Shown: in pieces, positions 2 through 36,352 of the stretch | Layout: every line of letters starts with the position of its first letter | How positions within the stretch are numbered: the stretch's first letter is position 1 | Sequence record: DRR723986_1367 | Direction: 5' to 3' (one strand) | DNA length: 38,552 bases | Made by a program: the position numbers and the translations under genes | The notes under the pieces: generated by a model | Seen by the model: the letters and a program-made list of their open reading frames with translations, nothing else | Databases searched by the model: none | What the model was told of the DNA's origin: nothing

Positions 2-1759
2 ATCGACCACGGTAAATCCACGCTGGCGGACCGGATGATTCAGCGCACCGGTGCGCTGTCTGACCGCGAGATGCAAGCACAAGTGCTGGATAGCATGGAC
101 ATTGAGCGCGAGCGGGGCATTACCATTAAGGCGCAAACCGTGCGGCTGGAGTATACCGCGCAAGACGGTGAGAAATATGTCCTGAACCTGATGGACACGC
201 CCGGCCATGTTGACTTTGCCTATGAGGTCAGCCGCTGCCTGTCGGCCTGTGAAGGCTCGCTGCTGGTGGTTGACGCAAGCCAGGGTGTTGAAGCGCAAAC
301 GCTGGCCAACGTGTATCAGGCCATTGAAAATGACCATGAAATTGTGCCGGTGCTGAATAAAATTGACCTGCCCGCCGCCGAGCCCGCGCGCGTACGCACC
401 CAGATTGAAGATGTCATCGGCCTTGATGCTTCGGATGCGGTGGAATGCTCCGCCAAGTCTGGCCTTGGCATTGATGATGTGCTGGAAGCGGTTGTTACCC
501 GCCTACCTGCGCCCGCCGGCGACCGCGATGCGCCCCTGAAAGCGCTGCTGGTTGACAGTTGGTATGATGCCTACCTTGGGGTGATGGTCCTTATCCGTGT
601 GCTGGACGGCACGGTGAAGAAGGGCCAGACCATTAAAATGATGGCCGCTGACACGGTGCACCAGGTTGACAAAGTTGGTGTGTTCACCCCCAAGGGTGTA
701 ACGGTGCCTGAGCTGGGGCCGGGCGATGTGGGTTTCATCACCGGTTCCATCAAGGAAGTGGCCGAGACCAATGTGGGTGACACCATCACTGACGCCAAGC
801 GCCCCTGCGCCGAGGCGCTGCCGGGCTTTAAGCCTAGCCAGTCTGTGGTATTTTGCGGCCTGTTCCCTGCCGACACCAGCGAGTATGAGGCGCTGAAAGA
901 AGCGCTGGCCAAACTGCGGCTGAATGATGCCAGCTTTGATTTTGAAACTGAAAGCAGCACCGCGCTGGGCTTTGGCTTCCGCTGTGGTTTCCTTGGCATG
1001 CTACATCTGGAAATTATTCAGGAGCGCATCAACCGCGAGTTTGATATTGAGCTGATTACCACCAGCCCCAGCGTTATTTACGAGGTTAACCTGAACAACG
1101 GCGATGTGCTGGAAATGCACAACCCCGCCGACCTGCCGGATGTGGTCTACATCGACCATATTAAAGAGCCGTGGATTGACGCGACCATTTTGGTGCCTGA
1201 CGATTATTTGGGTGTGGTGCTGAAGCTGTGCGAGGACAAGCGCGGCATTCAGGAAGACCTGACCTATGTGGGCGCGCGTGCCATGCTGAAGTATAAGCTG
1301 CCGCTGAATGAAGTGGTCTATGACTTTTACGACAGGCTGAAGTCTGTCAGCCGGGGCTATGCCAGCTTTGACTATGAGGTGAGCGGCTACGAGCAATCTG
1401 ACTTGGTGAAAATGTCTATTCTCGTCAACGCTGAGCCGGTTGATGCGCTTTCCATGTTGGTGCACCGGTCTCAGGCTGAAAGCCGGGGCCGGGCATTGTG
1501 CGCGCGATTGAAAGACCTGATCCCGCGGCAATTGTTCAAAATTCCGATCCAGGCGGCGATTGGCGGCAAAATTATTGGCCGCGAAACCATTTCCGCCATG
1601 CGCAAGGATGTAACCGCCAAATGTTACGGCGGCGACGTGACCCGCAAGAAAAAACTGCTCGAGAAGCAGAAAAAGGGCAAGGCCAAGATGCGCATGTACG
1701 GCAAGGTGGAAATTCCGCACAGTGCTTTCATCGCCGCGCTTAAAATGCGCGAAACCTAG
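2..1759 (+). CDS. lepA: Translation elongation factor 4 (LepA), 5'-truncated by window edge
   Basis: Frame open from position 2 ([12 protein letters not shown]...). Motifs [30 protein letters not shown] and C-terminal [11 protein letters not shown]. Confidence 0.99.
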
Positions 1760-1849
1760 TTTTCAGGCGGTCAGCCTATTAGGCGGTCGGGGCGGTCAGC
1801 GCTCGCTCGTCTCAAGCCTTCTAAATTTACATCTGTTTAAAATTGATGA

Positions 1850-2276
1850 GCCCAAAACGCCTTAAGCCAGCGCCCAAGCAGTGTGCTTGGGGCTGTGCTT
1901 TTGGGCCTTGGTCCCTGGGGAGGGCTGGGAGGGCTTAGGAGGTCTTCTAACAAATCCGCACGCTAGGGTGCGTACGGTATCAAATTGGTGCCGAGCAGAG
2001 CAGGAGTGAACACAGGCCGGCTCGGCGCGGCAGGTGTGTTCCGGGATAAATCCCTTTGCACGAACGGCCAGCGCGCCTGATGGGGGGAGCTGCGCTTGCC
2101 GTATAATCAGCCACTAATAACGGGAAAATATTAGCTGGCTGACCTTGGACCTATAAGCTTACTCAACAACCAGCGGAGGGAATGATGGTTTGCTGGGGGG
2201 TACACCCATACAAACCGTGTGTGATGCTGGTGGTTCAATCAAACTTATAGTGTGCGTGTCCTTTCGTTCGTCTTAC
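1850..2276. ncRNA. Candidate structured non-coding RNA / hairpin array (strand unresolved)
   Basis: Six stem-loops read by eye (1850-1906, 1957-1972, 1988-2028, 2064-2102, 2107-2142, 2165-2235). No credible ORF. A minus-strand promoter candidate lies at 2283-2311. Confidence 0.35.
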
Positions 2277-2282
2277 ACCCTC

Positions 2283-2311
2283 AACATAAGCAGGCCGTGT
2301 GCGTTCCGCAA
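2283..2311 (-). promoter_or_regulatory. Putative sigma70 promoter TTGCGG-N17-TATGTT, TSS about 2276
   Basis: Exact 17-bp spacer. The centre of the LysR box (2341) sits about 65 bp upstream of the predicted TSS, the usual LysR recognition-site position. Confidence 0.45.
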
Positions 2312-2333
2312 TACAGCGGCGCAATGTTTCCTG

Positions 2334-2348
2334 ATAGGAAAAACCTAT
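2334..2348. promoter_or_regulatory. LysR/OxyR-type box ATAG-N7-CTAT (copy 1)
   Basis: ATAGGAAAAACCTAT; 16 of 17 nt identical (2334-2350 vs 3776-3792) to the box in front of the LysR gene. Confidence 0.65.
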
Positions 2349-2432
2349 TGTGATAGGAATTTCGGTTAGGTTTGATCGATTATGCTCGGATTGGCGGTTT
2401 TCTGGGTTTTTGCTCTTGTAAAAGGACACTGT

Positions 2433-2449
2433 TCCCTAAACTTTAGGGA
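2433..2449. promoter_or_regulatory. Perfect 8-1-8 palindrome, possible operator
   Basis: TCCCTAAA-C-TTTAGGGA, about 80 bp upstream of the 2529 small ORF. Confidence 0.4.
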
Positions 2450-2528
2450 CACAGCCTTGGAAAAGGCAGGGCACGAAACGCCCCGTTTTAAGAATAAAAC
2501 CATTGATTAACACAGACAGGAGATCCCC

Positions 2529-2699
2529 ATGATTGGAACACGTGGAACAAGCGCAGGACGTATCGCCAAACTTCGCCGCCGGGTGCGCAGGCGCAATATG
2601 CGGCGGATACGGGCCGAGCAGGCAATGCAGGCGGTAAACACCCAAATTCAGCATGCGGCAAGCCATTTTGAGCGCAAGCCAGAAGCTGAAGCTGTTTAG
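2529..2699 (+). CDS. Small Arg-rich hypothetical protein (56 aa), not in ORF track
   Basis: CAGGAG RBS just upstream of ATG. Translation MIGTRGTSAGRIAKLRRRVRRRNMRRIRAEQAMQAVNTQIQHAASHFERKPEAEAV*. Followed by a GC hairpin. Confidence 0.6.
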   Translation: MIGTRGTSAGRIAKLRRRVRRRNMRRIRAEQAMQAVNTQIQHAASHFERKPEAEAV

Positions 2700-2723
2700 C
2701 CTTTGTTTGTAAGCATTTCCAGA

Positions 2724-2739
2724 GGGCGGTACGCCGCCC
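2724..2739. terminator. Hairpin between convergent small ORF and LysR gene
   Basis: GGGCGG-TACG-CCGCCC, UNCG-type tetraloop; no strong U tract. Confidence 0.45.
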
Positions 2740-2773
2740 CCATAACTATTGCCGCCCCAAAAGTGTTTATGGC

Positions 2774-3706
2774 TCAGGTTTCGATGGTGAAGGTTGGAAA
2801 TTTTACCTTAACCACGCTGCGAATAACCTCTGCCAGTTGGTGGTAGGCGGGTGCCCGCCCCGCACTGCTGCGCCACACCAGCCCTACCGAGCGGGTAATG
2901 GTTCGGTCATCCAGTTTTTTCACCACAACTTCACTTCGCGGCGAAATGTCAGAGTGCACATAAAGCGCTGGCAGGAAGGTGACACCCATGCCCATGCCAA
3001 CCATTTGGCGCAGGGCATCAAGGCTGGTGCCTTCATAATCGCGCAGGCGGGTTGCGCCGAAGTCTCGGCATAGGGCATTGATTTGGTCATGCAGGTGGTA
3101 TTCCGGGTTAAGCGACAGCATTTGAAGGCCTTCAAGGTCGTTTGATGTGATGCTGTCCCGGTCGGCTAGTGGGTGGTCAACGGCCATTGCAAGATACAGC
3201 GGTTCGCGGAACAGGCGGCACGTGACCAGCTCACTCCCGACGATAGGCAGCTGCGCCAGGATAACGTCATGCAGCCCGCGGTTCAGTTCGTGCACCATGT
3301 CTTGCGGTGGGGCTTCGCGCACATAGAGGTTCAGCTCGGGGTGGGCTTTGTGCAGCTTCGCCACCACCTGCGGCAACAGATAGGGCCCCAGCGTTGCTTT
3401 GGTGCCAAGCCGGATGGTGCCGACAAGGCCGTGCTGTGCGCCGGCAGTAAAATCAATAATGCCCTGCAGTTCGTCCACCACCCGGCGGGCGCGCGCACTC
3501 ACCTCTCGGCCAACCGGGGTGAGGGCAACGCCGGCACGGCCCCGCTCCACCAGGCGTACATCAAGCACATCTTCCAGATTTTGAATTTGCGCACTGAGCG
3601 ACGGTTGGCTGATGTTGCAGGCCTCCGCGGCATAGCGAAAATGTTTGGCATCTTCCAGGGCCACCAGATAGCGCAATTGCTTCAGCGTCAGGCGGTTGAT
3701 TTGCAT
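2774..3706 (-). CDS. LysR-family regulator, OxyR-like but lacking the peroxidatic Cys
   Basis: N-terminal LysR HTH (TLKQLRYLVAL...HFRYAAEACNISQPSLSAQIQNLE). OxyR-like segments TLGPYLLP and EGTSLDALRQMVGMGMGVTFLP. YHLHDQINALC replaces HCLRDQxxxxC. Confidence 0.92.
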   Translation of the reverse strand: MQINRLTLKQLRYLVALEDAKHFRYAAEACNISQPSLSAQIQNLEDVLDVRLVERGRAGVALTPVGREVSARARRVVDELQGIIDFTAGAQHGLVGTIRLGTKATLGPYLLPQVVAKLHKAHPELNLYVREAPPQDMVHELNRGLHDVILAQLPIVGSELVTCRLFREPLYLAMAVDHPLADRDSITSNDLEGLQMLSLNPEYHLHDQINALCRDFGATRLRDYEGTSLDALRQMVGMGMGVTFLPALYVHSDISPRSEVVVKKLDDRTITRSVGLVWRSSAGRAPAYHQLAEVIRSVVKVKFPTFTIET

Positions 3707-3774
3707 GGTCTTTCTCCGGTGAGGAAGGCGCAGGGTTTGGGCAGGCGCGCATCTGAAATTACGGCGGCACTATA

Positions 3775-3791
3775 AATAGGAAAATCCTATT
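3775..3791. promoter_or_regulatory. LysR/OxyR-type box (copy 2) in the divergent LysR / DUF465 promoter
   Basis: Perfect palindrome AATAGGA-AAA-TCCTATT containing ATAG-N7-CTAT. Centre (3783) is about 65 bp upstream of the TSS implied by a -10-like CTATATA at 3835-3841. Confidence 0.7.
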
Positions 3792-3883
3792 GAAAAATCA
3801 ATATCCATTGTCTTTTTGTATTGCTCAAGACACTCTATATACGAACGATGGTTAGAAACTCATCAAGCTCGAAAGAGACGCCA

Positions 3884-4126
3884 ATGCAGGAAGCGCATAC
3901 GCACAGATCAATTGGCCAGCGGCTCAGCGCTTTGAGGCGGCGGTATAGTATAATTGACGGACGTATCGATGCCGAGTTCAAGCGACCAAAGCCAGACCCT
4001 CTTTTGATTGTCAAGTACAAGCGGATTAGACTTGCGGTGAAAGATGAGATAACATCTTTGCTTTATATTAAGACCACTTTAGGCAATAATGCGAATCAAT
4101 TTTCTGATTCGAAATTGATTCGTTAG
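3884..4126 (+). CDS. DUF465 / YdcH-family small coiled-coil protein (80 aa)
   Basis: RLSALRRRYSIIDGRIDAEFKRPKPDPLLIVKYKRIRLAVKDEI fits the DUF465 pattern. Start moved to ATG 3884 after GAAAGAGA. Confidence 0.7.
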   Translation: MQEAHTHRSIGQRLSALRRRYSIIDGRIDAEFKRPKPDPLLIVKYKRIRLAVKDEITSLLYIKTTLGNNANQFSDSKLIR

Positions 4127-4143
4127 TGATTCGAAATTAGTAT
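4092..4143 (+). promoter_or_regulatory. Cluster of four TGATTCG (GANTC) sites overlapping a putative TTGATT-N17-TAGTAT promoter
   Basis: TGATTCG at 4105, 4116 and 4127 (11-bp period) plus inverted CGAATCA at 4092. -35 at 4115-4120, -10 at 4138-4143. Confidence 0.5.
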
Positions 4144-4194
4144 TTTATCACTATGAAAATATCGCCTCGTAGAACGTCAGAACTTCGATACTTA

Positions 4195-4246
4195 TCTTCA
4201 GGTTAAAATAAAGTCTCTGGTCTTCAGGTTAGAATAAAGTCTCTGG
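4195..4246. repeat. 26-bp tandem duplication (1 mismatch)
   Basis: TCTTCAGGTTAAAATAAAGTCTCTGG / TCTTCAGGTTAGAATAAAGTCTCTGG; partial third TCTTCAGGT at 4321. Confidence 0.9.
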
Positions 4247-4252
4247 GCTTTT

Positions 4253-4323
4253 TCTAATTTCGTCCAGTTTGCCTCTAATTTTGGTATGTTTTCTTCTAAT
4301 TTTGGCTGGTTAAATTCTATTCT
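4253..4323. repeat. Phased 21-bp direct repeats
   Basis: TCTAATTT at 4253, 4274 and 4295, degenerate TCTATTCT at 4316. Units 1-3 share TCTAATTT.G....GTT. Confidence 0.8.
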
Positions 4324-4438
4324 TCAGGTATTTTTTTATAAAAACACATCGTTTTTGTCAGAAAACCGTCAATACTATCTTCATTAGCAGACGCTATTTA
4401 CAGATTTTTAACGCCTAAGGTTGTATTTTATGTGCATA

Positions 4439-4523
4439 GATACAGCTCATTAGCTCCCTTATTCTGACTGTGTCCAGCGGGACCGCCCTTTCTCCCCCTG
4501 AAAGCGGTTCCGCTTTCTTTTTT
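4439..4523 (+). ncRNA. Candidate trans-acting sRNA with two C-rich (anti-SD) loops and an intrinsic terminator
   Basis: Hairpin GATACAG/CTGTGTC with loop containing AGCTCCC. Hairpin AGCGGGACCGC/GCGGTTCCGCT with loop TCCCCCT, then TTCTTTTTT. G-U pairs in both stems favour the + strand. Confidence 0.55.
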
Positions 4524-4659
4524 GCTCTGCAAGTATTTCAATTGCGCAATGGTTCGCGTTTATATGCTCTTTATTTTTTTAGCTAAATCCATATCCAGCT
4601 TGCATTTTCCCTGTAAAATACTCTTAATAGGTTTTGGGGGTTGCCTGAGAGATACGGTG

Positions 4660-5493
4660 ATGAAATTACTGGTTGCCATTTGCCTGATGATAACAGGCTT
4701 GATTGTCAATGCGCCCACAGCCCGTGCGCAAACCCTTATTGACACCAATGACCCGCGCCAGCTGGCGCTGGACATATATTCTGGTGTTGTTCGCGGCGGC
4801 GAACCTGCGATAATTGCCCTTAGATTACAAGCGCTTGTACGGATTTTTCGGTATCGTTGTACGCGCTTGACTGACTATCAGGTTTTCAATCAACGCACCA
4901 ATATTGTTGACTTTAAAGCCAAGTGCAGTGGCGACCCGCTTTACGGAGTTACCGTTGCGTCAAACGGCTATGTTTCTGTCTATGGCGGCAATGGTATTTT
5001 ATCAGGCTTCAACCGTACAGATGGTTTGATCCTTAGCTTTGCGGGTGATGGTGACCTTCAGGGTGACAGTGCTTTAACAGTTGAACAAGCAGTGGGTGAT
5101 ACGGTTGAAAGGCTTGACCTGAGCAACGAGGTGAATGCGATTTCCGTGGTCGGTATTATCTCTGGAACGCTGGCCTTTATCATAGTGATCGGTATTGTCT
5201 GGTGGCAGGCTTGGAAGCATAAGCTTACCCGAAAGCCTCGCCAACGTATGAAGCCGATGCAAAAACACAGGGTTTCCGCTTCAACGAGCGATAAAGACCT
5301 CTATGTTGCCGAAAGCGAAGAGGTTGGCAAGCATCTGTTCCGTCATCCCCAAGGCTTTTATATTGCGCGCGGTAAGCGAGGCAAACGCCGGTTTTTCAAA
5401 AGTCGTATTTGGGCCAAGCTCTATGCCGCTCGTGGATGGCGCATGTTTGAAATTAGCCCGCCAAAACGGCAGGATACTGTCAGTCCCGCTTAG
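4660..5493 (+). CDS. Hypothetical single-pass membrane protein with signal peptide
   Basis: MKLLVAICLMITGLIVNAPTARA signal peptide, TM helix (VVGIISGTLAFIIVIGIVWW), basic C-terminal domain. Start moved from 4522 to ATG 4660. Confidence 0.75.
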   Translation: MKLLVAICLMITGLIVNAPTARAQTLIDTNDPRQLALDIYSGVVRGGEPAIIALRLQALVRIFRYRCTRLTDYQVFNQRTNIVDFKAKCSGDPLYGVTVASNGYVSVYGGNGILSGFNRTDGLILSFAGDGDLQGDSALTVEQAVGDTVERLDLSNEVNAISVVGIISGTLAFIIVIGIVWWQAWKHKLTRKPRQRMKPMQKHRVSASTSDKDLYVAESEEVGKHLFRHPQGFYIARGKRGKRRFFKSRIWAKLYAARGWRMFEISPPKRQDTVSPA

Positions 5494-5835: not shown

Positions 5836-5965
5836 CGAGCCTTTCTATAACTGAAATTATCGTCTCACAAATTGGCCTCAGTAAAGCTTTTCAAGTGAAG
5901 GCGGCGCTGGTAGTCTCGGACATATGCAGAGTCAAAGTAAACGTACAGAAGGGACAGGGAACATT

Positions 5966-8059
5966 ATGGTCAAACATAAGAATGTATCAGGAAATAGTGT
6001 GATCAAGGCAAGCGCCGCATTGGCACTTACTATCGCTATGCACGGGGGGCTGAATGCAGCTCTTAGTGCGGCAGAACCGGTGCCAAACGGCTTGCAATAC
6101 ACCGATGTTTTCAATTTGGAATATGCCACTGGCCCCCAAATAACACCGGACGGGCAATCGGTTGTTTATGAGCGGCGGGCTATGGATGTGATGACTGATC
6201 GCGTGCGGTCTAACATCTGGTCTGTTGGGCTCGACGGCCAGAACCACCGGCCCATTCTGTCAGGTAAAGCACAGTATAGAATGCCACGCTTTTCGCCGGA
6301 CGGCACACGGCTGGCTTATTTGTCAACCGTGGAAGGCAAAACCCAAATTTATGTTCGTTGGCTGGATAGCGGTGCCACTGCACGGGTAACCGACTTGAAG
6401 GTGTCGCCGTCAAACATCAGTTGGTCGCCGGACGGCAAGCATATTGCTTTTACCATGTTTGCACCCTCGGCTGGCCCTTCGTTGTTTACCATGCCTTCTA
6501 AGCCTAAAGGGGCAAACTGGGCAGGCACCGCGCGTGTGATTGATACCATGACATACCGCATCGATGGTGCCGGGTATTTGCCAACCGGGTTTTCCCAAGT
6601 GTTTGTTGTGCCGTCAGACGGCGGTTCGCCGCGCCAAATCACCAGTGGTAATTTTAACCATAGTGGCACTATTAGTTGGACAGCGGATTCGGCAAATATT
6701 TTAGTTTCTGCCAACCGGAACGCAGACTGGGACATGAACCCCCGTGAAAGCGAGATTTATTCTTTTTCTGTAGCTGATGGCTCAGTGACGCAGTTAACCC
6801 AGCGGGTTGGTCCGGACGCCAATCCGATTGTGTCTCCGGACGGCAGCAAGGTTGCATACACCGGCAATGATGAAAACAACATGTCACACCAAAACGGTGA
6901 CCTGTATGTGATGAACATAGATGGATCTGGCGTGCAAAATCTGACCGCAGGGTTAGACCGGGGCGTGAGTAATGTTCAATGGAACAGTGATGGCACCGGG
7001 CTTTATTATTCTTATAATAATTCTGGTAAAAAGCTGGTGGCTTTCACCAATCTTGCCGGTAATGGCCGTGTTATTACAGACGCCCTTGGGGGCACTGCGC
7101 TTGGGCGGCCCTATGCCAGCGGCACCTACCGTGTGGCACCGGATGGCCGCGTTGTCTTTACTCAAGCCCGCGCCGACCGCCCCGGTGACTTGGCGGTAAT
7201 TGATCGAATCGGGTCAGTGACTGCACTTACCGACCTGAACGAAGATGCGCTCGGCGCGCGGGCCATGAGCCAAGTGGAACGCATTGCGACCAACTCTAGT
7301 TTTGATGGCCGCGAAGTGGAAGGCTGGATTGTCCGGCCCGCCAACTTTGACGCCTCCAAGCAGTATCCATTAATACTGGAAATTCATGGTGGTCCGCACG
7401 GTGCTTATGGCCCGGGCTTTAGTACAGAAGTTCAATTGATGGCGTCACAGGGCTATGTGGTTCTTTACACCAACCCGCGCGGCAGCACCTCATATGGGGC
7501 TGAGTTTGCCAACCTCATTCACCATAATTATCCATCGGAAGATTATGACGACATGATTGATTTGGTGGATGCAACCATTGCGCAAGGGTCAATTGATACT
7601 GATCAGCTGTATGTAACGGGCGGCTCAGGCGGCGGTGTGCTAACTGCATGGATTGTTGGCAAAACGGATCGCTTCCGGGCGGCAGTTGTTGCTAAGCCAG
7701 TGATTAACTGGTCCAGCTTCGTGCTTACAGCGGATTTCAGCGCAATGTTCACCAAATATTGGTTCCCGGACATGCCGTGGAATGAGCCTGAGCATTATTG
7801 GAAGCGTTCACCTTTGTCTCTGGTTGGCAATGTGAAAACACCGACCATGGTAATAAGTGGTGAGGACGATTATCGCACGCCGATTTCTGAGGCCGAGCAA
7901 TATTATAAAGCCCTGAAGCTTGAGGGTGTGCCAACCGCCATGGTGCGTGTGCCGGGCGCAAGCCACGGTATTGCAGGTAAACCCAGTAACTTGATCCAGA
8001 AAATTGGTAATATCATTGGCTGGTTCAAAAAGTTTGAGGGCGATACGCCTGCAGATTAG
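5966..8059 (+). CDS. S9-family serine peptidase (acylaminoacyl/dipeptidyl-peptidase-like), exported, with beta-propeller
   Basis: Signal peptide, repeated SPDG blades, IHGGPH, catalytic GGSGGG / DYRT / ASHG. Start at ATG 5966 after AGGGA. Confidence 0.95.
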   Translation: MVKHKNVSGNSVIKASAALALTIAMHGGLNAALSAAEPVPNGLQYTDVFNLEYATGPQITPDGQSVVYERRAMDVMTDRVRSNIWSVGLDGQNHRPILSGKAQYRMPRFSPDGTRLAYLSTVEGKTQIYVRWLDSGATARVTDLKVSPSNISWSPDGKHIAFTMFAPSAGPSLFTMPSKPKGANWAGTARVIDTMTYRIDGAGYLPTGFSQVFVVPSDGGSPRQITSGNFNHSGTISWTADSANILVSANRNADWDMNPRESEIYSFSVADGSVTQLTQRVGPDANPIVSPDGSKVAYTGNDENNMSHQNGDLYVMNIDGSGVQNLTAGLDRGVSNVQWNSDGTGLYYSYNNSGKKLVAFTNLAGNGRVITDALGGTALGRPYASGTYRVAPDGRVVFTQARADRPGDLAVIDRIGSVTALTDLNEDALGARAMSQVERIATNSSFDGREVEGWIVRPANFDASKQYPLILEIHGGPHGAYGPGFSTEVQLMASQGYVVLYTNPRGSTSYGAEFANLIHHNYPSEDYDDMIDLVDATIAQGSIDTDQLYVTGGSGGGVLTAWIVGKTDRFRAAVVAKPVINWSSFVLTADFSAMFTKYWFPDMPWNEPEHYWKRSPLSLVGNVKTPTMVISGEDDYRTPISEAEQYYKALKLEGVPTAMVRVPGASHGIAGKPSNLIQKIGNIIGWFKKFEGDTPAD

Positions 8060-8081
8060 AGCAGGGTACAAAAAAACAGAT

Positions 8082-8109
8082 AAAAAAGGGTCCTTCGGGG
8101 CCCTTTTTT
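8082..8109. terminator. Intrinsic terminator
   Basis: AAAAAAGGGTCC-TTCG-GGGCCCTTTTTT. Confidence 0.9.
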
Positions 8110-8204
8110 GCAAATATAGCCATGCCTGTTAAGCTATTGATTAGCGAATACGCGTTAAGTGTAAGCGGGTGAAGTATGAAATGAAAAGGCTGGGGAGTAA
8201 TATC

Positions 8205-10292
8205 ATGACGACAGTAATGAGGCTAAAGGTTGGGAATTTTAAATGTGCGCTTGCCGCATGTGTGGTTTTTTCTACTGCCATGTATGCAGCGCCTGTCAGC
8301 GCCGCACCGCCCACACCTGTTGAAAATGGCCTGCAATATCAGGATGTTTTTAATCTTGAATATGCAACGTCGCCGCAGGCAACCCCGGACGGACAGTCGA
8401 TCTACTATGAACGTCGATCGATGGATATTATGACCGACCGTATTGGCACCAATATCTGGACTGTTGATTTAGACGGCGGCAATCACCGCGCGGTGTTGTC
8501 CGGCAAAGCACAATACCGCATGCCGCGGTTCTCTCCGGATGGCACGCGGTTGGCGTACCTGTCGAATGAAGACGGCAAAAATCAGATTTATATTCGCTGG
8601 CTGGATAGCGGAGACACCACACGCTTAACAAACCTTGAGCGTTCGCCGTCGAACATTAGCTGGTCGCCAGACGGTAAGCAAATTGCGTTCACCATGTTTG
8701 TGCCTGAACCAGGTCCGTCATTGTTCAAAGTGCCAGTAAAAAAACCGAAAGACGCCAAGTGGGCTGCTGAAGTTGGTGTGACCGACAAACTGACCATTCG
8801 CCGCAACGGTGCGCCGGGCTATGTGCCATATGGCTTTACCCATGTTTTTGTTGTGCCGACAGATGGTGGCACCCCGCGCCAAGTGACGCATGGCGCTTAT
8901 AACCATAGAGGAGCGGTTTCATGGGTGCCCGACGCGAGTGCATTTGTGATCTCGGCAAACAGAAATGAAAACTGGGACCGCGATGGGCGTGAAAGCGACG
9001 TTTATAAGGTGAGCTTAGCGGATGGCGCGATCACTGCGCTTACCAGCCGTGATGGCCCCGATGGTTCGCCGGTTGTCTCGCCCAAGGGAGACCTCATTGC
9101 CTATACCGGTAATGACGACGACGGCCTGACCCAGCAAAACCGAGATCTATATATCATGAATATGGATGGCAGCGGGGTGCGCAACCTGACCGCAGGCCTT
9201 GACCGCAGTGTGGGCAATGTTCAGTGGAATGCTGATGGGTCAGGGTTGTATTATTCTTATGTTGCATCGGGCAAAAGGGTTGTCGCTTACACAAATTTGG
9301 CCGGTAATGGGCGGGTTATCACAGAAGAATTAGGCGGCACATCCCTTGGTCGGCCGTATGCTGGCGGCAACTACGGTGCTATGCCAGACGGGCGTATCGT
9401 CTTTACCCAAAGGCGCACAGATCGCCCGGCGGACCTTGCGGTTGTAGACCGGATTGGCAATGTAACCACATTAACTGATTTGAATGGTGACGTGATTGGA
9501 CACCGCCGCATGGCAACGGTGGAACGCATCACTGTGAATTCAAGCGTTGATGGTCGCGAGATTGAAGGCTGGCTTGCCAAGCCAGCGGGTTTCGACCCCT
9601 CTAAAAAATATCCGCTCATTCTCGAAATTCATGGCGGTCCCTTTTCGGCATATGGCCCCATGTATAGCAGTGAAATCCAGTTGATGGCGGCGCAGGGCTA
9701 TATGGTGCTTTTTGCCAACCCCCGGGGCAGCACGTCTTACGGCGCTGATTTTGCCAACCTGATCCATCAGAATTACCCGTCAGAGGATTATAACGATCTG
9801 ATGGATTTGGTTGATACCACTGTTGCGCAAGGCGCGGTTGACGAGGGTCAGCTTTACGTAACCGGTGGTTCGGCAGGCGGCATCATGACCGCATGGATTG
9901 TGGGCAAAACCAATCGCTTTCGGGCGGCTGTTGTCGCTAAACCTGTGATTAACTGGACCAGTTTGGTTCTCACATCAGATGCCGGTGTTGGCACAGTGCA
10001 AACCTGGTTTAGCGACATGCCCTGGAATGTGCCGATGGAATATTGGGAGAGTTCGCCCTTATCATTGGTGGGCAATGTAACGACGCCAACAATGGTTCTT
10101 GTTGGGGCAACGGATTACCGAACGCCAGTATCGGAGTCGGAGCAATATTATACAGCGCTCAGGCTAAAAGGCGTGCCAACAACCTTGGTGACGATGCCAA
10201 ATACGGACCACGGCCTGGCGAGTAGGCCAAGCAATCTCATTCGGAAAGTTGGCAACATCATCGCTTGGTTCAAGAAATATGAAAGCGAGTAG
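8205..10292 (+). CDS. S9-family serine peptidase, tandem paralog
   Basis: Collinear with the upstream paralog; IHGGPF, GGSAGG, DYRT, TDHG. Start at ATG 8205 after GGGGAG. Confidence 0.95.
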   Translation: MTTVMRLKVGNFKCALAACVVFSTAMYAAPVSAAPPTPVENGLQYQDVFNLEYATSPQATPDGQSIYYERRSMDIMTDRIGTNIWTVDLDGGNHRAVLSGKAQYRMPRFSPDGTRLAYLSNEDGKNQIYIRWLDSGDTTRLTNLERSPSNISWSPDGKQIAFTMFVPEPGPSLFKVPVKKPKDAKWAAEVGVTDKLTIRRNGAPGYVPYGFTHVFVVPTDGGTPRQVTHGAYNHRGAVSWVPDASAFVISANRNENWDRDGRESDVYKVSLADGAITALTSRDGPDGSPVVSPKGDLIAYTGNDDDGLTQQNRDLYIMNMDGSGVRNLTAGLDRSVGNVQWNADGSGLYYSYVASGKRVVAYTNLAGNGRVITEELGGTSLGRPYAGGNYGAMPDGRIVFTQRRTDRPADLAVVDRIGNVTTLTDLNGDVIGHRRMATVERITVNSSVDGREIEGWLAKPAGFDPSKKYPLILEIHGGPFSAYGPMYSSEIQLMAAQGYMVLFANPRGSTSYGADFANLIHQNYPSEDYNDLMDLVDTTVAQGAVDEGQLYVTGGSAGGIMTAWIVGKTNRFRAAVVAKPVINWTSLVLTSDAGVGTVQTWFSDMPWNVPMEYWESSPLSLVGNVTTPTMVLVGATDYRTPVSESEQYYTALRLKGVPTTLVTMPNTDHGLASRPSNLIRKVGNIIAWFKKYESE

Positions 10293-13950: not shown

Positions 13951-15000
13951 TCATGAACACTCAATATTATGTTTTTTAATGGCGTGGCGTATTTGATCAT
14001 AACTAATTTTTAATTGTCCCGCTGCCGCGCGCTGATTATAGCGCGCATGGATTAAGGCAGTCTCAATCAAGCTCTTTTCATAGTTGGCAACTTCGCTTTT
14101 TAGGTCAACTGGCTGGGTAGCATTGAAGTTAAGGGCTTTTGGTGCGGGCGTGTTATCATGAGGTTCGCGCCCTTTAGCTTGCTCGTTGTCCATGTGGACT
14201 GGCAGCCTTGCAGTCGCTGGTCTGTAAGGGCTTTCGAAAGGATCAAAAACCAAACCACAAACCGGCGCTTCACCGTCCCAGCATGTATATACCGCGCGCT
14301 CTACTACATTCTTCAATTCACGAATGTTGCCCGGCCAGCTGTAGTTTAGCATGGCATCTACCGCCACGTCAGAAAACCCAGGAAACGTGAGCCATTCAAG
14401 TTCATGTGCCATTGCAGCACCAAAATGATTGGCCAGCTCCAGTATGTCTTCGCGGCGTTCACGCAGTGGCGGTACGGTAATAACGTCAAAGGCGAGGCGG
14501 TCTAACAGGTCGTGGCGAAAGGCGCCAGCATCGGCCGCGGCAGGCAGGTCTATATTGGTGGCACCAATCACCCGCACATCAACCTTAACCGTTTCTGTAC
14601 CGCCAACCCGTTCCAGTTCGCCGTATTCAATAACCCGTAAAAGCTTTTCTTGCGCTTGCATGGCCATGGTACCTATTTCATCAAGAAACAAGCTGCCCTC
14701 GTCTGCGGCTTCAAAACGGCCAGCCCGCCTATTACGGGCACCGGTAAAGGCTCCGGGCTCATATCCAAATAATTCGCTTTCCAGCAAGGTCGGTGCCAGC
14801 GCTGCGCAGTTCATTTTTTGAAAGACCTGATCCCACCGCATAGAAAGGAAGTGTAGCCGCGCGGCTATCATTTCTTTGCCTGTACCCCTTTCTCCAACTA
14901 CTAAAAGCGGCCGGTCTAACGGTGCGGCGCGGCTGATTTTGTCCATAAGGTCAAGGAATGCTGGCGAAGAGCCAATTATCTGGTCAGACTGATAATTCAT
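13951..15000 (-). CDS. pspF: Phage shock protein operon activator PspF (sigma54 enhancer-binding protein)
   Basis: GERGTGKE, ESELFG, GAFTGA, LFLDE, DLLDRLAFDV, WPGNIRELKN, C-terminal HTH, no receiver domain; divergent from pspA. Confidence 0.95.
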   Translation of the reverse strand: MNYQSDQIIGSSPAFLDLMDKISRAAPLDRPLLVVGERGTGKEMIAARLHFLSMRWDQVFQKMNCAALAPTLLESELFGYEPGAFTGARNRRAGRFEAADEGSLFLDEIGTMAMQAQEKLLRVIEYGELERVGGTETVKVDVRVIGATNIDLPAAADAGAFRHDLLDRLAFDVITVPPLRERREDILELANHFGAAMAHELEWLTFPGFSDVAVDAMLNYSWPGNIRELKNVVERAVYTCWDGEAPVCGLVFDPFESPYRPATARLPVHMDNEQAKGREPHDNTPAPKALNFNATQPVDLKSEVANYEKSLIETALIHARYNQRAAAGQLKISYDQIRHAIKKHNIECS

Positions 15001-15422: not shown

Positions 15423-16136
15423 ATGGGTATTTTTTCCCGCCTGACAGACATTATTAACTCCAATATTAATTCCATTTTGGATTCAGCGGAAGATCCTGAA
15501 AAAATCATTCGTATGGTTATTCAGGAAATGGAAGACACTTTGGTTGAAGTTCGCTCAAGCGCAGCTAAAACCATCGCGGACCAGAAAGATATCAACCGCC
15601 GTCTCGGTAAAATGGATAAGGCACAGTCTGATTGGGAAAAGAAAGCCGAACTGGCCATTTCTAAAGGTCGCGATGACCTGGCCAAAGGCGCGTTGGTGGA
15701 GAAAGCCAAAGTCGCTGACATGGTTGCCCATCTCACTGAAGAAGCCGCTCACCTTGATGCCGCGTTGAAGCAAAACGAAGAAGACGTGATCAAGCTTGAT
15801 GCAAAGCTCCGTGAAGCCCGCGCTAAAAAGGCGGCACTTGCTGCGCGTCATAAGACAGTATCTAACACGGTTCGAATTCGTAAAAACTTGAACGATAACC
15901 GTATTCAGGATGCATTTGATCGCTTCGATAAAGTAGACGCCCGCATGGACCGTCTGGAAGCTGAAGCAGAATCAATGAACATTGGCAAGGGCCAAACATT
16001 GGCGGAAGAGATTACGAGCCTTGAGGTTGATGATACAATCGAAAAGGAACTGGAACAGCTGAAGGCAAAAGCAAGCGGTACGGCGAACGACAATAAAAAA
16101 GCCGCGACCAAAGCCAAAAAAGCAGCTGCTAAGTAA
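15423..16136 (+). CDS. pspA: Phage shock protein A
   Basis: MGIFSRLTDIINSNIN...AEDPEKIIRMVIQEMEDTLVEVRS; AAGGA RBS. Confidence 0.97.
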   Translation: MGIFSRLTDIINSNINSILDSAEDPEKIIRMVIQEMEDTLVEVRSSAAKTIADQKDINRRLGKMDKAQSDWEKKAELAISKGRDDLAKGALVEKAKVADMVAHLTEEAAHLDAALKQNEEDVIKLDAKLREARAKKAALAARHKTVSNTVRIRKNLNDNRIQDAFDRFDKVDARMDRLEAEAESMNIGKGQTLAEEITSLEVDDTIEKELEQLKAKASGTANDNKKAATKAKKAAAK

Positions 16137-16207: not shown

Positions 16208-16438
16208 ATGCCAGATGTAATCGGAATCTTACTTTTCACAATCGTCATCCCGCTTTGGATAATTTTCCATTATGTTACAAAATGGAAAACCATGAAGGGC
16301 ATAACCCCGGAAGATGAAGCCTCTCTGGGCGACCTTCGCAACTCTGCAGACCGCTTGGAAGACCGCCTTCGTGTTATGGAGCGGATCATGGACGATGAAG
16401 TGCCAGATTGGAGGAGCCGCCACAATGACAAGTTTTAG
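16208..16438 (+). CDS. pspB: Phage shock protein B
   Basis: N-terminal TM with PLWIIFHY; ADRLEDRLRVMERIMDDEVPDWR. Confidence 0.93.
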   Translation: MPDVIGILLFTIVIPLWIIFHYVTKWKTMKGITPEDEASLGDLRNSADRLEDRLRVMERIMDDEVPDWRSRHNDKF

Positions 16439-16817
16439 AAGAAGCCCAACGCGCCTGTATAAAAATCCACAAAAAGGTAAAATTGCTGGTGTATGTGCTG
16501 GCATCGCTGACTATTTTGATATGAAAGTGGGTGTTGTACGTTTCCTATTCGTACTGGGTGCTTTGTTCACAGGTATTTGGCCACTGGTAATTGGTTACTT
16601 TGTTGCCTCGCTTTGGCTCGACCCTACGCCCGTTGATTTATACGAAGACGAGCAGGAAGAGGAGTTTTGGCGGCAAACCAGAAAATCACCGGACTATACA
16701 GCCGCAGATCTGCGCCGTCGTTTTCGCGACATCGAACGCCGCGCCAGCGATATGGAAGCCTACGTGACCAGCAAGCGATTTAAGTTAGACCGCGAATTGC
16801 GCGCTTTGGAAGACTAG
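16425..16817 (+). CDS. pspC: Phage shock protein C
   Basis: LYKNPQKGKIAGVCAGIADYF PspC domain and MEAYVTSKRFKLDREL. Start at ATG 16425 after GGAGGAG, overlapping pspB. Confidence 0.93.
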   Translation: MTSFRRSPTRLYKNPQKGKIAGVCAGIADYFDMKVGVVRFLFVLGALFTGIWPLVIGYFVASLWLDPTPVDLYEDEQEEEFWRQTRKSPDYTAADLRRRFRDIERRASDMEAYVTSKRFKLDRELRALED

Positions 16818-18900: not shown

Positions 18901-20268
18901 TTAGCCTGTTACGGTGTTGTAGATAATCGAAACAAACACAGCACCAACGGCCACTGGGCAAACATACCGTACTAGGAAATACCAGACACGGAATGTGCTG
19001 TCAGTCATGGCAAGCTCTTCCATCATATTTTTGCGGCTGACGAACCACCCAACAAAGATAGCAGAGAACATGCCGCCAATTGGCATCATGATGTTGTTGG
19101 TCAGGAAGTCTTTTGCATCCAGAATACTGCGGCCGAATATTGAAATTTCAGCAATGACGTTGTCGCCTTGACTAAGGCCAGACAAGACACCCATTGCGAA
19201 AATAAAGCCACTGATCATCAGAGCGATCTTTTTGCGCTCCACACCGGTCTTTTCAGTGACATAAGCCACTGATGGCTCCAATAGTGAGATGGCGCTGGTA
19301 ACAGCGGCAACAACTAACAGGAAGAAGAAAGCGCCGCCAACAAAGGCACCACCGCTCATTTGTCCAAACGCAATTGGTAGGGTGGCAAAAATCAATCCAG
19401 GGCCTTGACCAGGAACCAGGCCATACGCAAATACAATTGGGAAAATCATCAGGCCTGCCATAATGGCCACACCTGTGTCTGCACTGGCAATAATAACGGC
19501 AGATTTACCAATGTTCACGCTGCGCTGCATGTAGGCGCCGTATGTCATAATTGAACCAAGCGCCAATGAAAGCGAAAAGAAAGACTGACCGAGGGCTTGC
19601 AGAGCGACATCAAGGTTAATCTTGGAAAAATCTGGTTTAAACAGGAAGTCGACTGTCGCGCCAATATCACCGACGATACTTGAATAGATAGCCAAGCCAA
19701 TCAGCAGTATAAAAAGCGCAGGCATCAAATATGTTACCGCTTTTTCGAGGCCACCTTCAACGCCGCGCGCCACAATAAACATCGTTAGCGCCATAAAGGC
19801 AGCATGCCAGCCGATCACGGCATACTCGTTGGACAGTAAACCACCAAAGTGTGCGCCTGCCGCTGCCGCATCCATCCCTGTAAATGTACCAGAGATTGCT
19901 TCGAAAAAGTAAGAAACAGTCCAGCCGCCAATAACTGAATAGAAGCTAAGAACAATAACAGCACCAATAACACCGGACCAACCGACAAGAGCCCATAAAG
20001 GACTGCGGCCTTCTTCTTTGGCGATTTTTGCCATAGAGCCAATGGGCGACTTTTGCCCGCGTCGACCAAGAGAAAGTTCGGCGACAAGAATAGGCGTGCC
20101 AACGACAAAGACGAAAAAGAGGTAGATAAGTACAAAAGCACCGCCCCCGCCTTGTCCGGCTTCATAAGGAAATTTCCAAATGTTACCAAGGCCGACAGCA
20201 CTACCGACCGCTGCCATAATGAAAGTCCAACGCGATGACCAGTGCGCTGTTTGTGATGATCCAGCCAT
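18901..20268 (-). CDS. Sodium-dependent transporter, NSS/SNF (LeuT-like) family
   Basis: WSSRWTFIMAAVGSAVGLGNIWKFPY, GGGAF, QSFFSLS, GPGLIF. Start at ATG 20268. Confidence 0.95.
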   Translation of the reverse strand: MAGSSQTAHWSSRWTFIMAAVGSAVGLGNIWKFPYEAGQGGGGAFVLIYLFFVFVVGTPILVAELSLGRRGQKSPIGSMAKIAKEEGRSPLWALVGWSGVIGAVIVLSFYSVIGGWTVSYFFEAISGTFTGMDAAAAGAHFGGLLSNEYAVIGWHAAFMALTMFIVARGVEGGLEKAVTYLMPALFILLIGLAIYSSIVGDIGATVDFLFKPDFSKINLDVALQALGQSFFSLSLALGSIMTYGAYMQRSVNIGKSAVIIASADTGVAIMAGLMIFPIVFAYGLVPGQGPGLIFATLPIAFGQMSGGAFVGGAFFFLLVVAAVTSAISLLEPSVAYVTEKTGVERKKIALMISGFIFAMGVLSGLSQGDNVIAEISIFGRSILDAKDFLTNNIMMPIGGMFSAIFVGWFVSRKNMMEELAMTDSTFRVWYFLVRYVCPVAVGAVFVSIIYNTVTG

Positions 20269-20397
20269 AAGTCCCAAACTCCCCCGAGTATGATTATGGG
20301 TAATAATGAAAACACCGTGCACACACGGATAACTTTGGCTCGCTCCCCAGCCAGCCAAAGCGGTACAAAATTATCTATAATGCAGCTTTACCGCCCG

Positions 20398-21225
20398 CTA
20401 CTGTGATGTGTCAATAACTGCGCAATATTCTTGCTGGCTTTTAACCGAACGACAAAGGCTACTGGCATCGGCTTTTTCACTCACGCGCACACCGAGGCGC
20501 ACAGCCGTACTGCCGCCAACAGTAAGTTCCCACTGATCAATAATACCGGCCAGTGGCGGAAATTTAGCCTCAAGGGTAGAGCGGTTTTTGGTTGCAGCGT
20601 TTATGGAACTGTAGCTGGCCAAGTGAACGAACCATTGCCCCAGTGGAGATTGACTCGATGGTTTGGAAAGTTTGGCCACATCCCGATTATTTGAACGACT
20701 GCCAGAGTTGCGACCAGAGAATCTGATCGGGTCAACCACGCGAATTGGCCCAGAAGGGGCAATGCCCTCATGCAGCCGGGTAGGCGGGGCCAAGTTAACA
20801 TCCATCGCGGTTAGATACTGCGACAGAGCAGCTAATCGGCGCCCAGCTTCATCAACAACCGGTCCATCTGCTAACACGCGGTCAAAGCATCGCGCCTGCA
20901 CGCCATCGTTTGAGTTGGTTTGCATTACGCGGGCATACAATAGCCGTGCGCGGTTTACGGAACCGGCTTCCTCAAGGGCGAGCGCGGTATAAAATCTGTC
21001 TGTGGCAGAAACTAGGGGTTCAGCATTGAGGGCGTCAATTGCTTCTTGTGGGCGACCGTTACATATGGCGGCCTCTAAGTTTGACGATAATGCCTGAACG
21101 GAGCCACCGTTCATGCTTGCTGTAGGCCCTGTTCCTTGCAGGGTGCTGCCTCCACATGCCGCGAGCAAGAAAACCGGTGCCAGTTTCATCAGTGTGGTGA
21201 TTTTTGAATGTTCCTTCGCCCACAT
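20398..21225 (-). CDS. Lipoprotein with helical (TPR-like) N-domain and C-terminal SPOR domain
   Basis: Lipobox FLLAAC; WFVHLASYSS...ASSLCRSVKSQQEYCAV is an alphaproteobacterial SPOR pattern. Confidence 0.75.
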   Translation of the reverse strand: MWAKEHSKITTLMKLAPVFLLAACGGSTLQGTGPTASMNGGSVQALSSNLEAAICNGRPQEAIDALNAEPLVSATDRFYTALALEEAGSVNRARLLYARVMQTNSNDGVQARCFDRVLADGPVVDEAGRRLAALSQYLTAMDVNLAPPTRLHEGIAPSGPIRVVDPIRFSGRNSGSRSNNRDVAKLSKPSSQSPLGQWFVHLASYSSINAATKNRSTLEAKFPPLAGIIDQWELTVGGSTAVRLGVRVSEKADASSLCRSVKSQQEYCAVIDTSQ

Positions 21226-21228
21226 GAT

Positions 21229-23445: not shown

Positions 23446-23492
23446 ATTGGACCTATAAAAAAGATATAATTGGACCTTTATATAGGCTCAAT
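23446..23492. promoter_or_regulatory. MocR-type operator: two direct repeats plus one inverted repeat
   Basis: ATTGGACCT at 23446 and 23469; imperfect inverted copy AGGCTCAAT at 23484. Confidence 0.75.
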
Positions 23493-23538
23493 AGTGGCAC
23501 ACATTTCATGACACGCAAAGATTAAACAGGAAAGATAT

Positions 23539-23760
23539 ATGGCGCTGGAACTTACTTTTGGTCGAACCACATTTTCGGTACGAAGGCGCCCCGTTAGGCA
23601 AGTGGGCAAGGCAAACTTGTCTGCACAAGGGAAAAGCAGCTTTCTATCAGCCTATGTAAAAATTTTTAACGGCACATGGGAAGCAAAAGCGGGCGCCTTT
23701 TTCCCCAAACAGCTTTCGGCAAAACGAGAAAAAACAGAACTGGATAAAAAAGATGTCTGA
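23539..23760 (+). CDS. Small basic hypothetical protein (73 aa)
   Basis: ACAGGAAAG RBS; first ORF after the MocR operator; stop overlaps the next start (ATGTCTGA). Confidence 0.55.
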   Translation: MALELTFGRTTFSVRRRPVRQVGKANLSAQGKSSFLSAYVKIFNGTWEAKAGAFFPKQLSAKREKTELDKKDV

Positions 23761-33510: not shown

Positions 33511-33689
33511 CGTCTTGACCTCCAACATGAATTTACTGTGACGAACTCGCCTAAGGCGATCCCATTTAATTTTTCCGGCAAACTTGCCTGACACATGCGT
33601 ATCAATTCTCAGCCTTAGCCCCCTCTGAGAATGGGCGACAAGCTTGCGGAAACGGAAAGAGAAATCAACCAGAATCTTGGCAATTTCGA

Positions 33690-33707
33690 AATGATAGCGC
33701 TGTCATT
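33690..33707. promoter_or_regulatory. LacI-family-type operator between pckA and chvI
   Basis: AATGATAGC|GCTGTCATT, central CG, one mismatch; extra half-site AATGACAGC at 33755-33763. Confidence 0.6.
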
Positions 33708-34615: not shown

Positions 34616-34629
34616 GGCACCGAACCAAC

Positions 34630-36300: not shown

Positions 36301-36352
36301 TTTACGAGGGGCGATAAGCGAGCAGTTGGGCGAGCGCAAGCGTAGGTGAAAC

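Follow-up and report, generated by a model that had tools for sequence, protein, structure and literature searches.

A LysR-type regulator whose gene lies beside a divergent target and a neighbouring small RNA (sRNA) gene is a kind of system already known, as in oxyR-oxyS. OxyR of Escherichia coli controls the adjacent sRNA gene oxyS, and the OxyR operator is built on ATAG/CTAT elements with the half-site pattern ATAG-N7-CTAT. The locus treated here belongs to sequence DRR723986_1367, of which one strand of 38,552 bp was analysed (this whole stretch is called the window). It comprises a LysR-type regulator gene, two near-identical predicted operators (box 1 and box 2), a divergent gene for a small DUF465 protein, a putative non-coding RNA and a small open reading frame (ORF) of 56 amino acids (aa), here called orf56. 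By its sequence the regulator belongs to a branch of OxyR-like LysR regulators that is widespread among alphaproteobacteria. Conservation in relatives identifies the dyad ATAGG-N5-CCTAT as the predicted family operator and box 2 as its canonical site in the divergent promoter region, and DUF465 is probably the target of box 2 and a conserved partner of the regulator. The principal features are:

2334-2350, read on the plus strand: box 1, second operator, ATAGGAAAAACCTATTG, exact match, 433 bp past the regulator stop codon
2529-2699, plus strand: orf56, 56-aa arginine-rich ORF, convergent with the regulator gene and divergent from box 1
2774-3706, minus strand: LysR-type regulator, 310 aa, OxyR-like fold, peroxidatic cysteine missing
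3776-3792, read on the plus strand: box 2, primary operator, ATAGGAAAATCCTATTG, exact match, core dyad 3776-3790
3884-4126, plus strand: DUF465 small protein, 80 aa (PF04325 over residues 15-60, E 2.4e-7, 31.1 bits where the gathering cut-off is 25)

The locus was compared with 80 related loci from GTDB species genomes, sampled among the matches listed with a profile built on 28 aligned homologues. Their regulators are 49-73% identical to that of the window, and their titles are alphaproteobacterial except for a few bins. Counts of box positions use the 78 loci with enough upstream sequence; residue counts and the tree use 79 proteins.

Comparison with described systems

The locus resembles oxyR-oxyS of E. 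coli in the structural LysR branch of its regulator, in the placement of the regulator gene beside a putative sRNA gene, in an ATAG/CTAT operator and, by its predicted layout, in autoregulation from a shared control region. It differs in the replacement of Cys199 by His204 and in a score under the OxyR equivalog cut-off. The divergent partner is DUF465 and not an sRNA, the putative RNA being placed on a second operator 433 bp past the stop codon, and the relatives adjoin ion and bicarbonate transporters instead of peroxide defences.

VtlR/LsrB are OxyR-like LysR regulators with sRNA and small-protein targets, and the VtlR study places the sRNA genes just downstream of the regulator gene (PMC7486931). 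In that study, vtlR lies directly downstream of trxB, an arrangement called well conserved, and upstream of abcR1/2, and the VtlR box is given as GCAT-N3-TG-N3-T (PMC7486931). LsrB is described as restricted to Rhizobiales (PMC11975290). The present locus shares the general layout, but it has no trxB upstream, its box is ATAGG-N5-CCTAT and it holds no AbcR-type RNA, a separation drawn on gene order, box and RNA families. Rhizobiales-type relatives of the window regulator adjoin Sbt_1, isocitrate dehydrogenase (IDH) or DUF533 genes.

NhaR, whose gene is linked to nhaA, is described as a LysR regulator of high salt and high pH (PMC6307784), and a link to an NhaA antiporter gene is also seen in 13 of the 80 loci. 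The window regulator aligns with NhaR over the N-terminal 156 residues only (21% identity, E 3e-05) and therefore represents a different LysR branch; NhaR is outside its best 25 NCBIfam families, and identification as NhaR was rejected. Moreover, E. coli nhaR follows nhaA in the same direction, whereas the genes are divergent here.

The cyanobacterial regulon of NdhR/CcmR includes sbtA/B, a Mrp-like mnh operon and, in one species, bicA, with alpha-ketoglutarate and NADP+ as effectors (PMC4390856). The neighbourhoods of the present family show a similar gene set, namely SbtA with a PII-like protein, Mrp, SulP with carbonic anhydrase, and IDH, the likeness being one of gene content. The hosts here, in contrast, are heterotrophic alphaproteobacteria, and DUF465 and the RNA have no counterpart in that regulon as far as it is described there (PMC4390856).

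The sequence-only reading had called the module undescribed, and this agrees with the literature searched, a scope that left out most subscription journals. No published study of this regulator branch was found there, nor a description of its operator architecture, its DUF465 link or its ion and carbon transport neighbours. No paper treating LysR and DUF465 together was found; a search for LysR, mrp antiporter, Alphaproteobacteria and a divergent layout gave none either, and related queries gave only a Thiomicrospira genome paper and a cyanobacterial review.

The family operator

The two boxes are one base apart over 17 and have the same orientation, and an exact-match check agreed with the coordinates given in the sequence-only reading. 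With up to 3 mismatches, the degenerate box pattern matches these two sites alone in the window; shuffled sequences gave a mean of 0.18 matches, and 2 of 100 shuffles reached two. The looser ATAG-N7-CTAT occurs 11 times with up to one mismatch (8.6 expected), and its exact occurrences are again the two boxes alone.

A strict ATAG-N7-CTAT has its centre within 120 bp upstream of the regulator start in 48 of the 78 loci, and between -20 and +100 of the regulator stop codon in 10 of them. Strict boxes elsewhere number 10 in 643,839 bp, that is 0.002 per 120 bp or about one per 64 kb. When up to two mismatches to ATAGG-N5-CCTAT are allowed, 64 loci have an upstream box. The best argument against a chance origin of the boxes comes from outside the window: in BLASTN of the 769-bp spacer between lepA and orf56 against the 80 loci, about 20 of 29 rows represent the box, chiefly upstream of regulators; the remaining rows are short weak matches elsewhere in the spacer (E 1.5 to 5.2). 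An nhmmer search with the same spacer gave no match outside the window among the 80 loci, and beyond the 17-mer the regions of box 1 and box 2 resemble each other weakly. The conservation across the 80 loci argues that both boxes are operators of the adjacent LysR regulator, as had been proposed, with binding predicted.

The divergent promoter region and DUF465

Aligned upstream boxes of the 64 loci show a conserved flank toward the divergent gene: the box at positions 1-15 is followed by CAAAA-TT, a weaker CAAT-N3-4-ATTG dyad ending near 35, a T-rich stretch at 38-40 and a -10-like element of the form CCCATNT/CTATAT. On the target side this last element starts at 58-60 in 23 of the 64 loci; the regulator side, which shows no conservation, has a start within 56-61 in only 3 of 64. 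Around box 2 the elements are:

3796-3769, minus strand: the regulator's own promoter, TTTTCA-N16-TATAGT (sigma-70 scan, 9/12); box 2 lies across its spacer
3799-3841, plus strand: putative DUF465 activation site and promoter region, made up of the three following elements
3799-3810, plus strand: dyad CAATATCCATTG (CAAT-N4-ATTG)
3813-3818, plus strand: T-rich -35 zone TTTTTG
3834-3841, plus strand: -10-like TCTATATA, with CTATATA at 3835-3841

The box-2 elements are in register with those of related loci, which places the predicted transcription start site (TSS) of DUF465 near 3847-3848. By the family matrix the plus flank of box 2 scores 17.4 bits, the top of about 77,000 window positions. 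The element aTAGGAAAATCCTAt has the T-N11-A form, and the centre of box 2 (3783-3784) lies about 64 nt before the predicted TSS. The expected LysR layout, a T-N11-A dyad near -65 overlapping the regulator's own promoter, is thus present at box 2, and autorepression may be assumed since that promoter spans the box in the classic manner. Since the predicted TSS falls on an in-frame ATG at 3848, DUF465 may also exist in a leaderless form of 92 aa.

We know of no function for DUF465. By iterative profile search, 25 of the 80 loci carry a DUF465 ORF, in every case upstream of the regulator on the divergent strand and in 19 of them within 250 bp; Pfam confirms the family at E <= 1e-6 in 10 loci. It is the commonest first gene past the divergent box. 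In several loci other genes continue downstream of DUF465 in its direction: Usp and next NhaA or MrpA in L052 and L071, NhaA alone in L037, L060 and L065. Together with the plus flank of box 2, this recurrence makes DUF465 the probable target of the box, as suggested earlier.

Downstream of its divergent DUF465 gene, Fulvimarina pelagi (L058) has a terC RNA motif (3278-3338, minus strand; RF03067, 49.4 bits) and a TerC-family membrane protein (2235-3362, minus strand). Five loci of Rhodobacteraceae (L016, L025, L039, L056, L057) have divergent ORFs of 73-95 aa without a Pfam family between the regulator and mrpA; these may represent additional small-protein targets or else belong to MrpA as its N-terminal extension.

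The second operator and a putative RNA

Box 1 lies in the spacer that separates the lepA gene from orf56. The features of this region are:

up to 1759, plus strand: lepA, partial at the window start
lepA to orf56: spacer of 769 bp, after which orf56, the LysR gene and the DUF465 gene follow
1848-1912: long GC hairpin, candidate bidirectional terminator (for lepA on the plus strand and as a second RNA 3' end on the minus strand), followed on the minus side by AAUUUUAAA
1955-2276, minus strand: putative non-coding RNA, length about 320 nt (about 440 nt should it continue to the hairpin at 1848-1912)
1956-1977, minus strand: terminator-like hairpin CCGUACGCACCCUAGCGUGCGG, then AUUUGUU (terminator scan; fold -16.5 kcal/mol, z -5.33), first candidate RNA 3' end
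2311-2283, minus strand: putative box-1 promoter, -35 TTGCGG (2311-2306), N17, -10 TATGTT (2288-2283), extended CTTATGTT at 2290-2283
2423-2455: near-perfect palindrome (UCCCUAAA / UUUAGGGA core) between box 1 and orf56, followed on the minus strand by UUUU

The hexamers named by the sequence-only reading, TTGCGG-N17-TATGTT on the minus side of box 1 and CTATATA on the plus side of box 2, exist where described; on the plus strand the former read CCGCAA (2306-2311) and AACATA (2283-2288), 17 nt apart. Counted from the start of box 1 they occupy positions 38-43 and 59-66, the register of box 2, and the -10-like motif at 59 matches the family start of 58-60. This register suggests a minus-strand TSS at about 2276. 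The claim that the boxes stand about 65 bp upstream of outward promoters therefore agrees with the family pattern at both sites, the promoters being putative.

A second box beyond the regulator, also part of the earlier proposal, is a recurrent layout, seen near the stop codon in the 10 of 78 loci mentioned above and at +446 in L058. Seven second boxes close to the stop were scored, six past it and one just inside it, and all face in the regulator's direction, with flank differences of 19-35 bits; an eighth, at +446 in L058, faces back. The genes fronted by scored second boxes, or lying downstream of unscored ones, are:

L001 and L002: DUF533
L013: carbonic anhydrase and SulP
L020: zinc-ribbon protein
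L075 and L078: ABC transporter
L008 (a Marinicaulis bin, region 4930-5190): unit of about 190 nt with a terminator, fronted by a second box right after the regulator stop
L019: carbonic anhydrase and SulP, downstream of an unscored second box
L066: NhaA, downstream of an unscored second box

The unit in L008 has a textbook family promoter, a strong AGGAGA and a 25-aa hydrophobic ORF with a TTG start; judged by these elements, it is a tiny-protein or sRNA output in another genus.

The minus strand from 2276 to 1945 folds with a minimum free energy of -125.5 kcal/mol (z -5.56; 0 of 100 shuffles as good), compared with z -2.31 for the plus strand; extended to 1825 (452 nt), the minus strand gives z -6.28. 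The fold of 1955-2276 has six hairpins. Unpaired C-rich stretches are CCCUCC at 2180, the loop UUUUCCCGU at 2128-2120 and CUCCCCCC at 2089, and the two candidate terminators enclose an extra CCUCCUAAGCCCUCCCAGCCCUCCCC run. Alphaproteobacterial sRNAs typically have C-rich loops which base-pair with ribosome-binding sites. The hairpin at 1848-1912 folds at -39.8 kcal/mol on the minus strand (z -5.0) and at -34.4 kcal/mol on the plus strand (z -3.05), where the site was also found by the terminator scan. The minus strand of the RNA region has no ATG-started ORF of at least 20 aa; its ORFs, none longer than 44 aa, have GTG or TTG starts and by inspection lack a Shine-Dalgarno sequence. At gathering score, Rfam 15 gave 0 matches over the whole window; at E <= 10 over 1700-4700 three weak unrelated matches appeared, none in 1760-2330. 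A pseudogene remnant in the spacer was sought by tblastn of 3,227 neighbouring ORFs, with a best E of 4.7e-05 before correction, which is not significant. A repeat array was considered for the hairpin region and rejected, as it contains no real direct-repeat family.

The palindrome at 2423-2455 appears as a self-match in BLASTN, with fold energies of -14.3 kcal/mol on the minus strand and -14.6 kcal/mol on the plus strand (z about -2); it is a candidate end of the regulator mRNA or a candidate operator of another factor.

Family neighbourhoods and likely signal

The regulator has the LysR-type domain layout, with an N-terminal HTH_1 (PF00126, 6e-19, residues 8-67) and a C-terminal LysR_substrate domain (PF03466, 1.6e-46, residues 93-298). 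Hundreds of close homologues exist; the closest are 95, 87, 81 and 77% identical, and the best 120 listed have 63-95% identity. A quick maximum-likelihood tree of 79 proteins shows two clades, each with a Shimodaira-Hasegawa-like approximate likelihood ratio (SH-aLRT) of 98, the window clade having 63 members. L001 and L062, two contigs of one Rhodobiaceae metagenome bin with proteins 73% and 50% identical to the window protein, are in different clades, which indicates that the clades are paralogous. One of these paralogues adjoins DUF465/DUF533 and the other IDH. L013 and L051 are titled as gammaproteobacterial bins (Woeseiaceae and Luminiphilus) yet nest among alphaproteobacterial sequences, a placement that suggests binning error or gene transfer.

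Across the 80 loci, the genes lying no more than 2.5 kb from the regulator include:

MrpA (with MnhB where scanned): 21 loci
NhaA: 13 loci
Usp: 10 loci
DUF533: 8 loci
Sbt_1 bicarbonate-transporter family: 7 loci, in two of which (L007 and L072) it adjoins a PII-like protein
IDH: 7 loci
beta-carbonic anhydrase and SulP: 2 loci

MrpA, NhaA, Sbt_1 and carbonic anhydrase-SulP together account for 43 of the 80 loci, and within the window clade itself there are regulators with NhaA, Mrp, Sbt, carbonic anhydrase-SulP and IDH links. These neighbourhoods point to Na+, pH or inorganic carbon as the signal, and not to peroxide, so that ion or inorganic-carbon stress is the likely signal by analogy with the relatives. 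The survey of orthologues that the sequence-only reading had called for thus bears out the divergent DUF465 gene and turns up ion and bicarbonate transporters in place of peroxide defences. In relatives the operator stands before genes for Mrp, NhaA, SbtA/B, carbonic anhydrase-SulP, Usp, DUF533 and IDH, and the present regulon probably reaches past the 38.5 kb analysed. A self-contained module, as first proposed, is unlikely given these targets, and 38.5 kb is too little to judge it by.

Proposed mechanism and alternatives

The account that follows combines the family operator, the DUF465 target, an RNA from box 1 and a non-peroxide ion or carbon signal, and as a whole it is given slightly better than even chances. 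A tetramer on box 2 (centre about -64) and the weaker CAAT-N4-ATTG/T-rich site would activate the DUF465 promoter, with a TSS near 3847, and would also cover the regulator's own promoter and repress it. Box 1 would be a second, co-directional operator, like those after the regulator stop in 10 of 78 relatives. From TTGCGG-N17-TATGTT a minus transcript would start at about 2276 and end at the hairpin 1977-1956 or 1912-1848. The product would be an RNA of 320-440 nt, structured and apparently non-coding, with C-rich unpaired stretches that might bind ribosome-binding sites by base pairing. The signal would be some aspect of Na+/H+/inorganic-carbon balance. The DUF465 output is well supported by these comparisons, and the RNA output moderately.

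Several observations weigh against this account. The generic sigma-70 scan flagged only the regulator's own promoter and missed both outward promoters. By the family matrix the flanks of box 1 score 0.1 bits on the minus side (top 1.2% of window positions) and -4.2 bits on the plus side (top 4.4%), a preference of about 4 bits only, compared with side differences of 13-35 bits at second boxes in other loci. TTGCGG shares 3 of 6 bases with TTGACA, and box 1 lies 433 bp from the stop codon, as against 7-73 bp for other second boxes. The putative RNA has no homologue among the 80 loci and no Rfam family, and GC-rich terminator regions also give high fold z-scores. No transporter gene lies beside either box in the window, the proposed signal having its basis in the neighbourhoods of relatives only; several of the 80 loci are metagenome bins, and the sample spans two paralogous clades. 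The minus strand is moderately preferred for box 1, on the register and the co-directional second boxes set against the weak flanks, the distance and the layout of L058 described below. Of the earlier claim that box 1 drives a non-coding RNA, the promoter register and the fold are borne out; the missing homologue and the small flank preference speak against it.

Box 1 might instead serve the plus strand and activate orf56 through a long leader, in place of or besides the RNA, so that it would form a second divergent region like that of box 2; this is a doubtful but serious competitor. The 17-mer is the same and in the same orientation as in box 2, and over positions 31-45 the plus flank is ahead, since T33, TTT38-40 and T43 give 5.4 bits against -3.7 on the minus side. 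In L058 the only other distant second box (+446) is turned back to an ORF of 95 aa that converges with the regulator gene, a layout that would favour orf56. The ORF itself exists at 2529-2699, divergent from box 1, as the sequence-only reading had noted, and has AGGAG 7 nt before its ATG. A single homologue, also of 56 aa, was found among 1.84 billion representatives and in a 5.8-billion set; it is identical at 47 of 56 positions (84%), and its changes are mostly conservative (53/56 positives). However, the plus side has no -10-like motif in register (over positions 57-70 it has -11.3 bits, compared with +1.5 for the minus side), and 187 bp separate the box centre from the orf56 ATG. The homologue shares its source with the 95%-identical regulator, yet is only 84% identical, so orf56 diverges faster than the regulator, about as expected under little or no constraint. 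No counterpart of orf56 was found in the 80 loci or beside the 87%, 81% or more distant relatives; searches for families gave no Pfam and no NCBIfam match, and Atlas matches of at most 0.77, which are uninformative. The ORF may encode a small protein of recent origin, or be no gene at all.

Less probable, and rated as unlikely, is a box 1 that binds without promoter function, as a spare or titrating site, or that is a chance near-copy, the hairpins at 1780-2280 being terminators and structured spacer after lepA. Such a reading would fit the near-zero scores of both flanks, the lack of a homologue or Rfam match for the region, the failure of the generic scan to find the promoter and the hairpin 1848-1912, which is plausible as a lepA terminator alone. 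It has to reckon, however, with a 16/17 copy within 1.5 kb of the regulator, very unlikely by chance when strict boxes elsewhere are so rare (about 1 per 64 kb), with the recurrence of second boxes in 10 of 78 loci with clear promoter-like flanks, and with a 570-bp spacer after lepA whose strand-specific fold (z -5.6 against -2.3) exceeds the needs of a terminator.

That the regulator is a true peroxide-sensing OxyR, in a module like oxyR-oxyS, is very improbable. Its best named NCBIfam matches are OxyR, GltC and CynR, BLASTP gives 36% full-length identity with E. coli OxyR, and many close relatives are publicly labelled 'hydrogen peroxide-inducible genes activator'. Likewise, ATAG-N7-CTAT resembles the OxyR half-site pattern, and E. 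coli oxyR also adjoins an sRNA gene. Against this, the regulator reaches 213.9 bits with the OxyR equivalog model NF008361, under the cut-off of 329, and 139.8 bits with the Francisella-type OxyR model (cut-off 500). In BLASTP, C199 of E. coli OxyR aligns with His204 and C208 with Cys213. Position 204 is His in 41, Ala in 18, Gln in 6 and other residues in 14 of the 79 family members, and Cys in none, whereas Cys213 is Cys in 72 of 79. The only cysteines of the window regulator are 30, 163 and 213 (VtlR/LsrB conserve C144 and C273 in A. tumefaciens numbering), and the conserved residues around the site of the missing cysteine are His146, His178, His206 and Cys213. Scanning of the 28 larger ORFs of the window found no katG, ahpC or dps, in line with the earlier statement that none is adjacent, and no catalase, AhpC or peroxiredoxin was found in 150 upstream and 14 further ORFs (9 downstream, 5 upstream) beside the regulators of relatives, where a lone ferritin-like gene occurs in L019. 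The equivalog score, the residue at the 199 position and the neighbours together led to the rejection of OxyR as an identification, and with it of the oxidative-stress reading of the module.

Kinship with VtlR/LsrB, also raised earlier, with the RNA as an AbcR-type target, is the least credible of all: the layout is like that of vtlR with abcR1/abcR2 behind it, and the genes activated by VtlR include sRNAs and small proteins (PMC7486931), but the upstream neighbour here is the divergent DUF465 gene, 0 of 150 ORFs upstream of the relatives' regulators match a thioredoxin-reductase-type family, the window has 10 copies of GCAT-N3-TG-N3-T (10.3 expected) and none in 2276-2530 or 3707-3884, Rfam found no AbcR-type family in the window or in 16 loci (8 of Rhizobiales type), which gave tRNAs and one terC RNA only, and LsrB is described as restricted to Rhizobiales (PMC11975290).

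Other features of the window

An AT-rich spacer and several gene groups lie beyond DUF465:

4105-4138: 11-bp repeat TGATTCGAAAT, 3.1 copies, across the DUF465 stop
4127-4660: AT-rich spacer of about 530 bp after DUF465, 32-33% GC compared with about 55% around it
4195-4250: 26-bp tandem repeat, 2.2 copies, 93% match
5924-10292: two tandem paralogous genes of the prolyl-oligopeptidase family (S9), 711 and 707 aa
13951-16817: phage-shock-type cluster with a sigma-54 activator (13951-15000, minus), PspA/IM30 (15423-16136, plus) and a PspC-domain protein (16314-16817, plus)
18901-20358, minus strand: sodium:neurotransmitter-family symporter
21229-21990, minus strand: eukaryotic-type (alpha) carbonic anhydrase, near the symporter
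31906-38106: in order, PEP carboxykinase, response regulator, ChvG/ExoS-type sensor kinase, HPr-kinase C-terminal fragment, RapZ and EIIA-Man protein

The carbonic anhydrase/symporter region (18901-21990) is without an exact regulator box, the nearest sites being one-mismatch matches at chance level at 23227-23873. The layout of PEP carboxykinase, ChvG/ExoS, RapZ and EIIA-Man is typical of alphaproteobacteria. ARAGORN found no tRNA and no tmRNA in the window.

Significance

A broader view, put forward tentatively and with less confidence than the account of the locus itself, is that this OxyR-like branch, which has lost the sensing cysteine, governs Na+/H+/bicarbonate homeostasis in marine and other alphaproteobacteria through Mrp, NhaA, SbtA/B, carbonic anhydrase-SulP, Usp and IDH. 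It would then be a heterotroph counterpart of NdhR/CcmR, with DUF465 as its constant small-protein partner and, in this lineage, a dedicated C-rich RNA of 0.3-0.45 kb in an OxyS-like role. The window offers a compact test case, with one regulator, two near-identical operators and two small outputs, in which binding, TSS mapping and stimulus screening are simple. If the view is true, it would provide a regulator for Mrp/NhaA antiporters and SbtA-type bicarbonate transporters in abundant marine heterotrophs, none having been found in the literature searched. The label 'hydrogen peroxide-inducible genes activator' would then have to be replaced for many alphaproteobacterial genes, and DUF465 would gain a defined regulator, an operator and likely conditions under which it may be tested.

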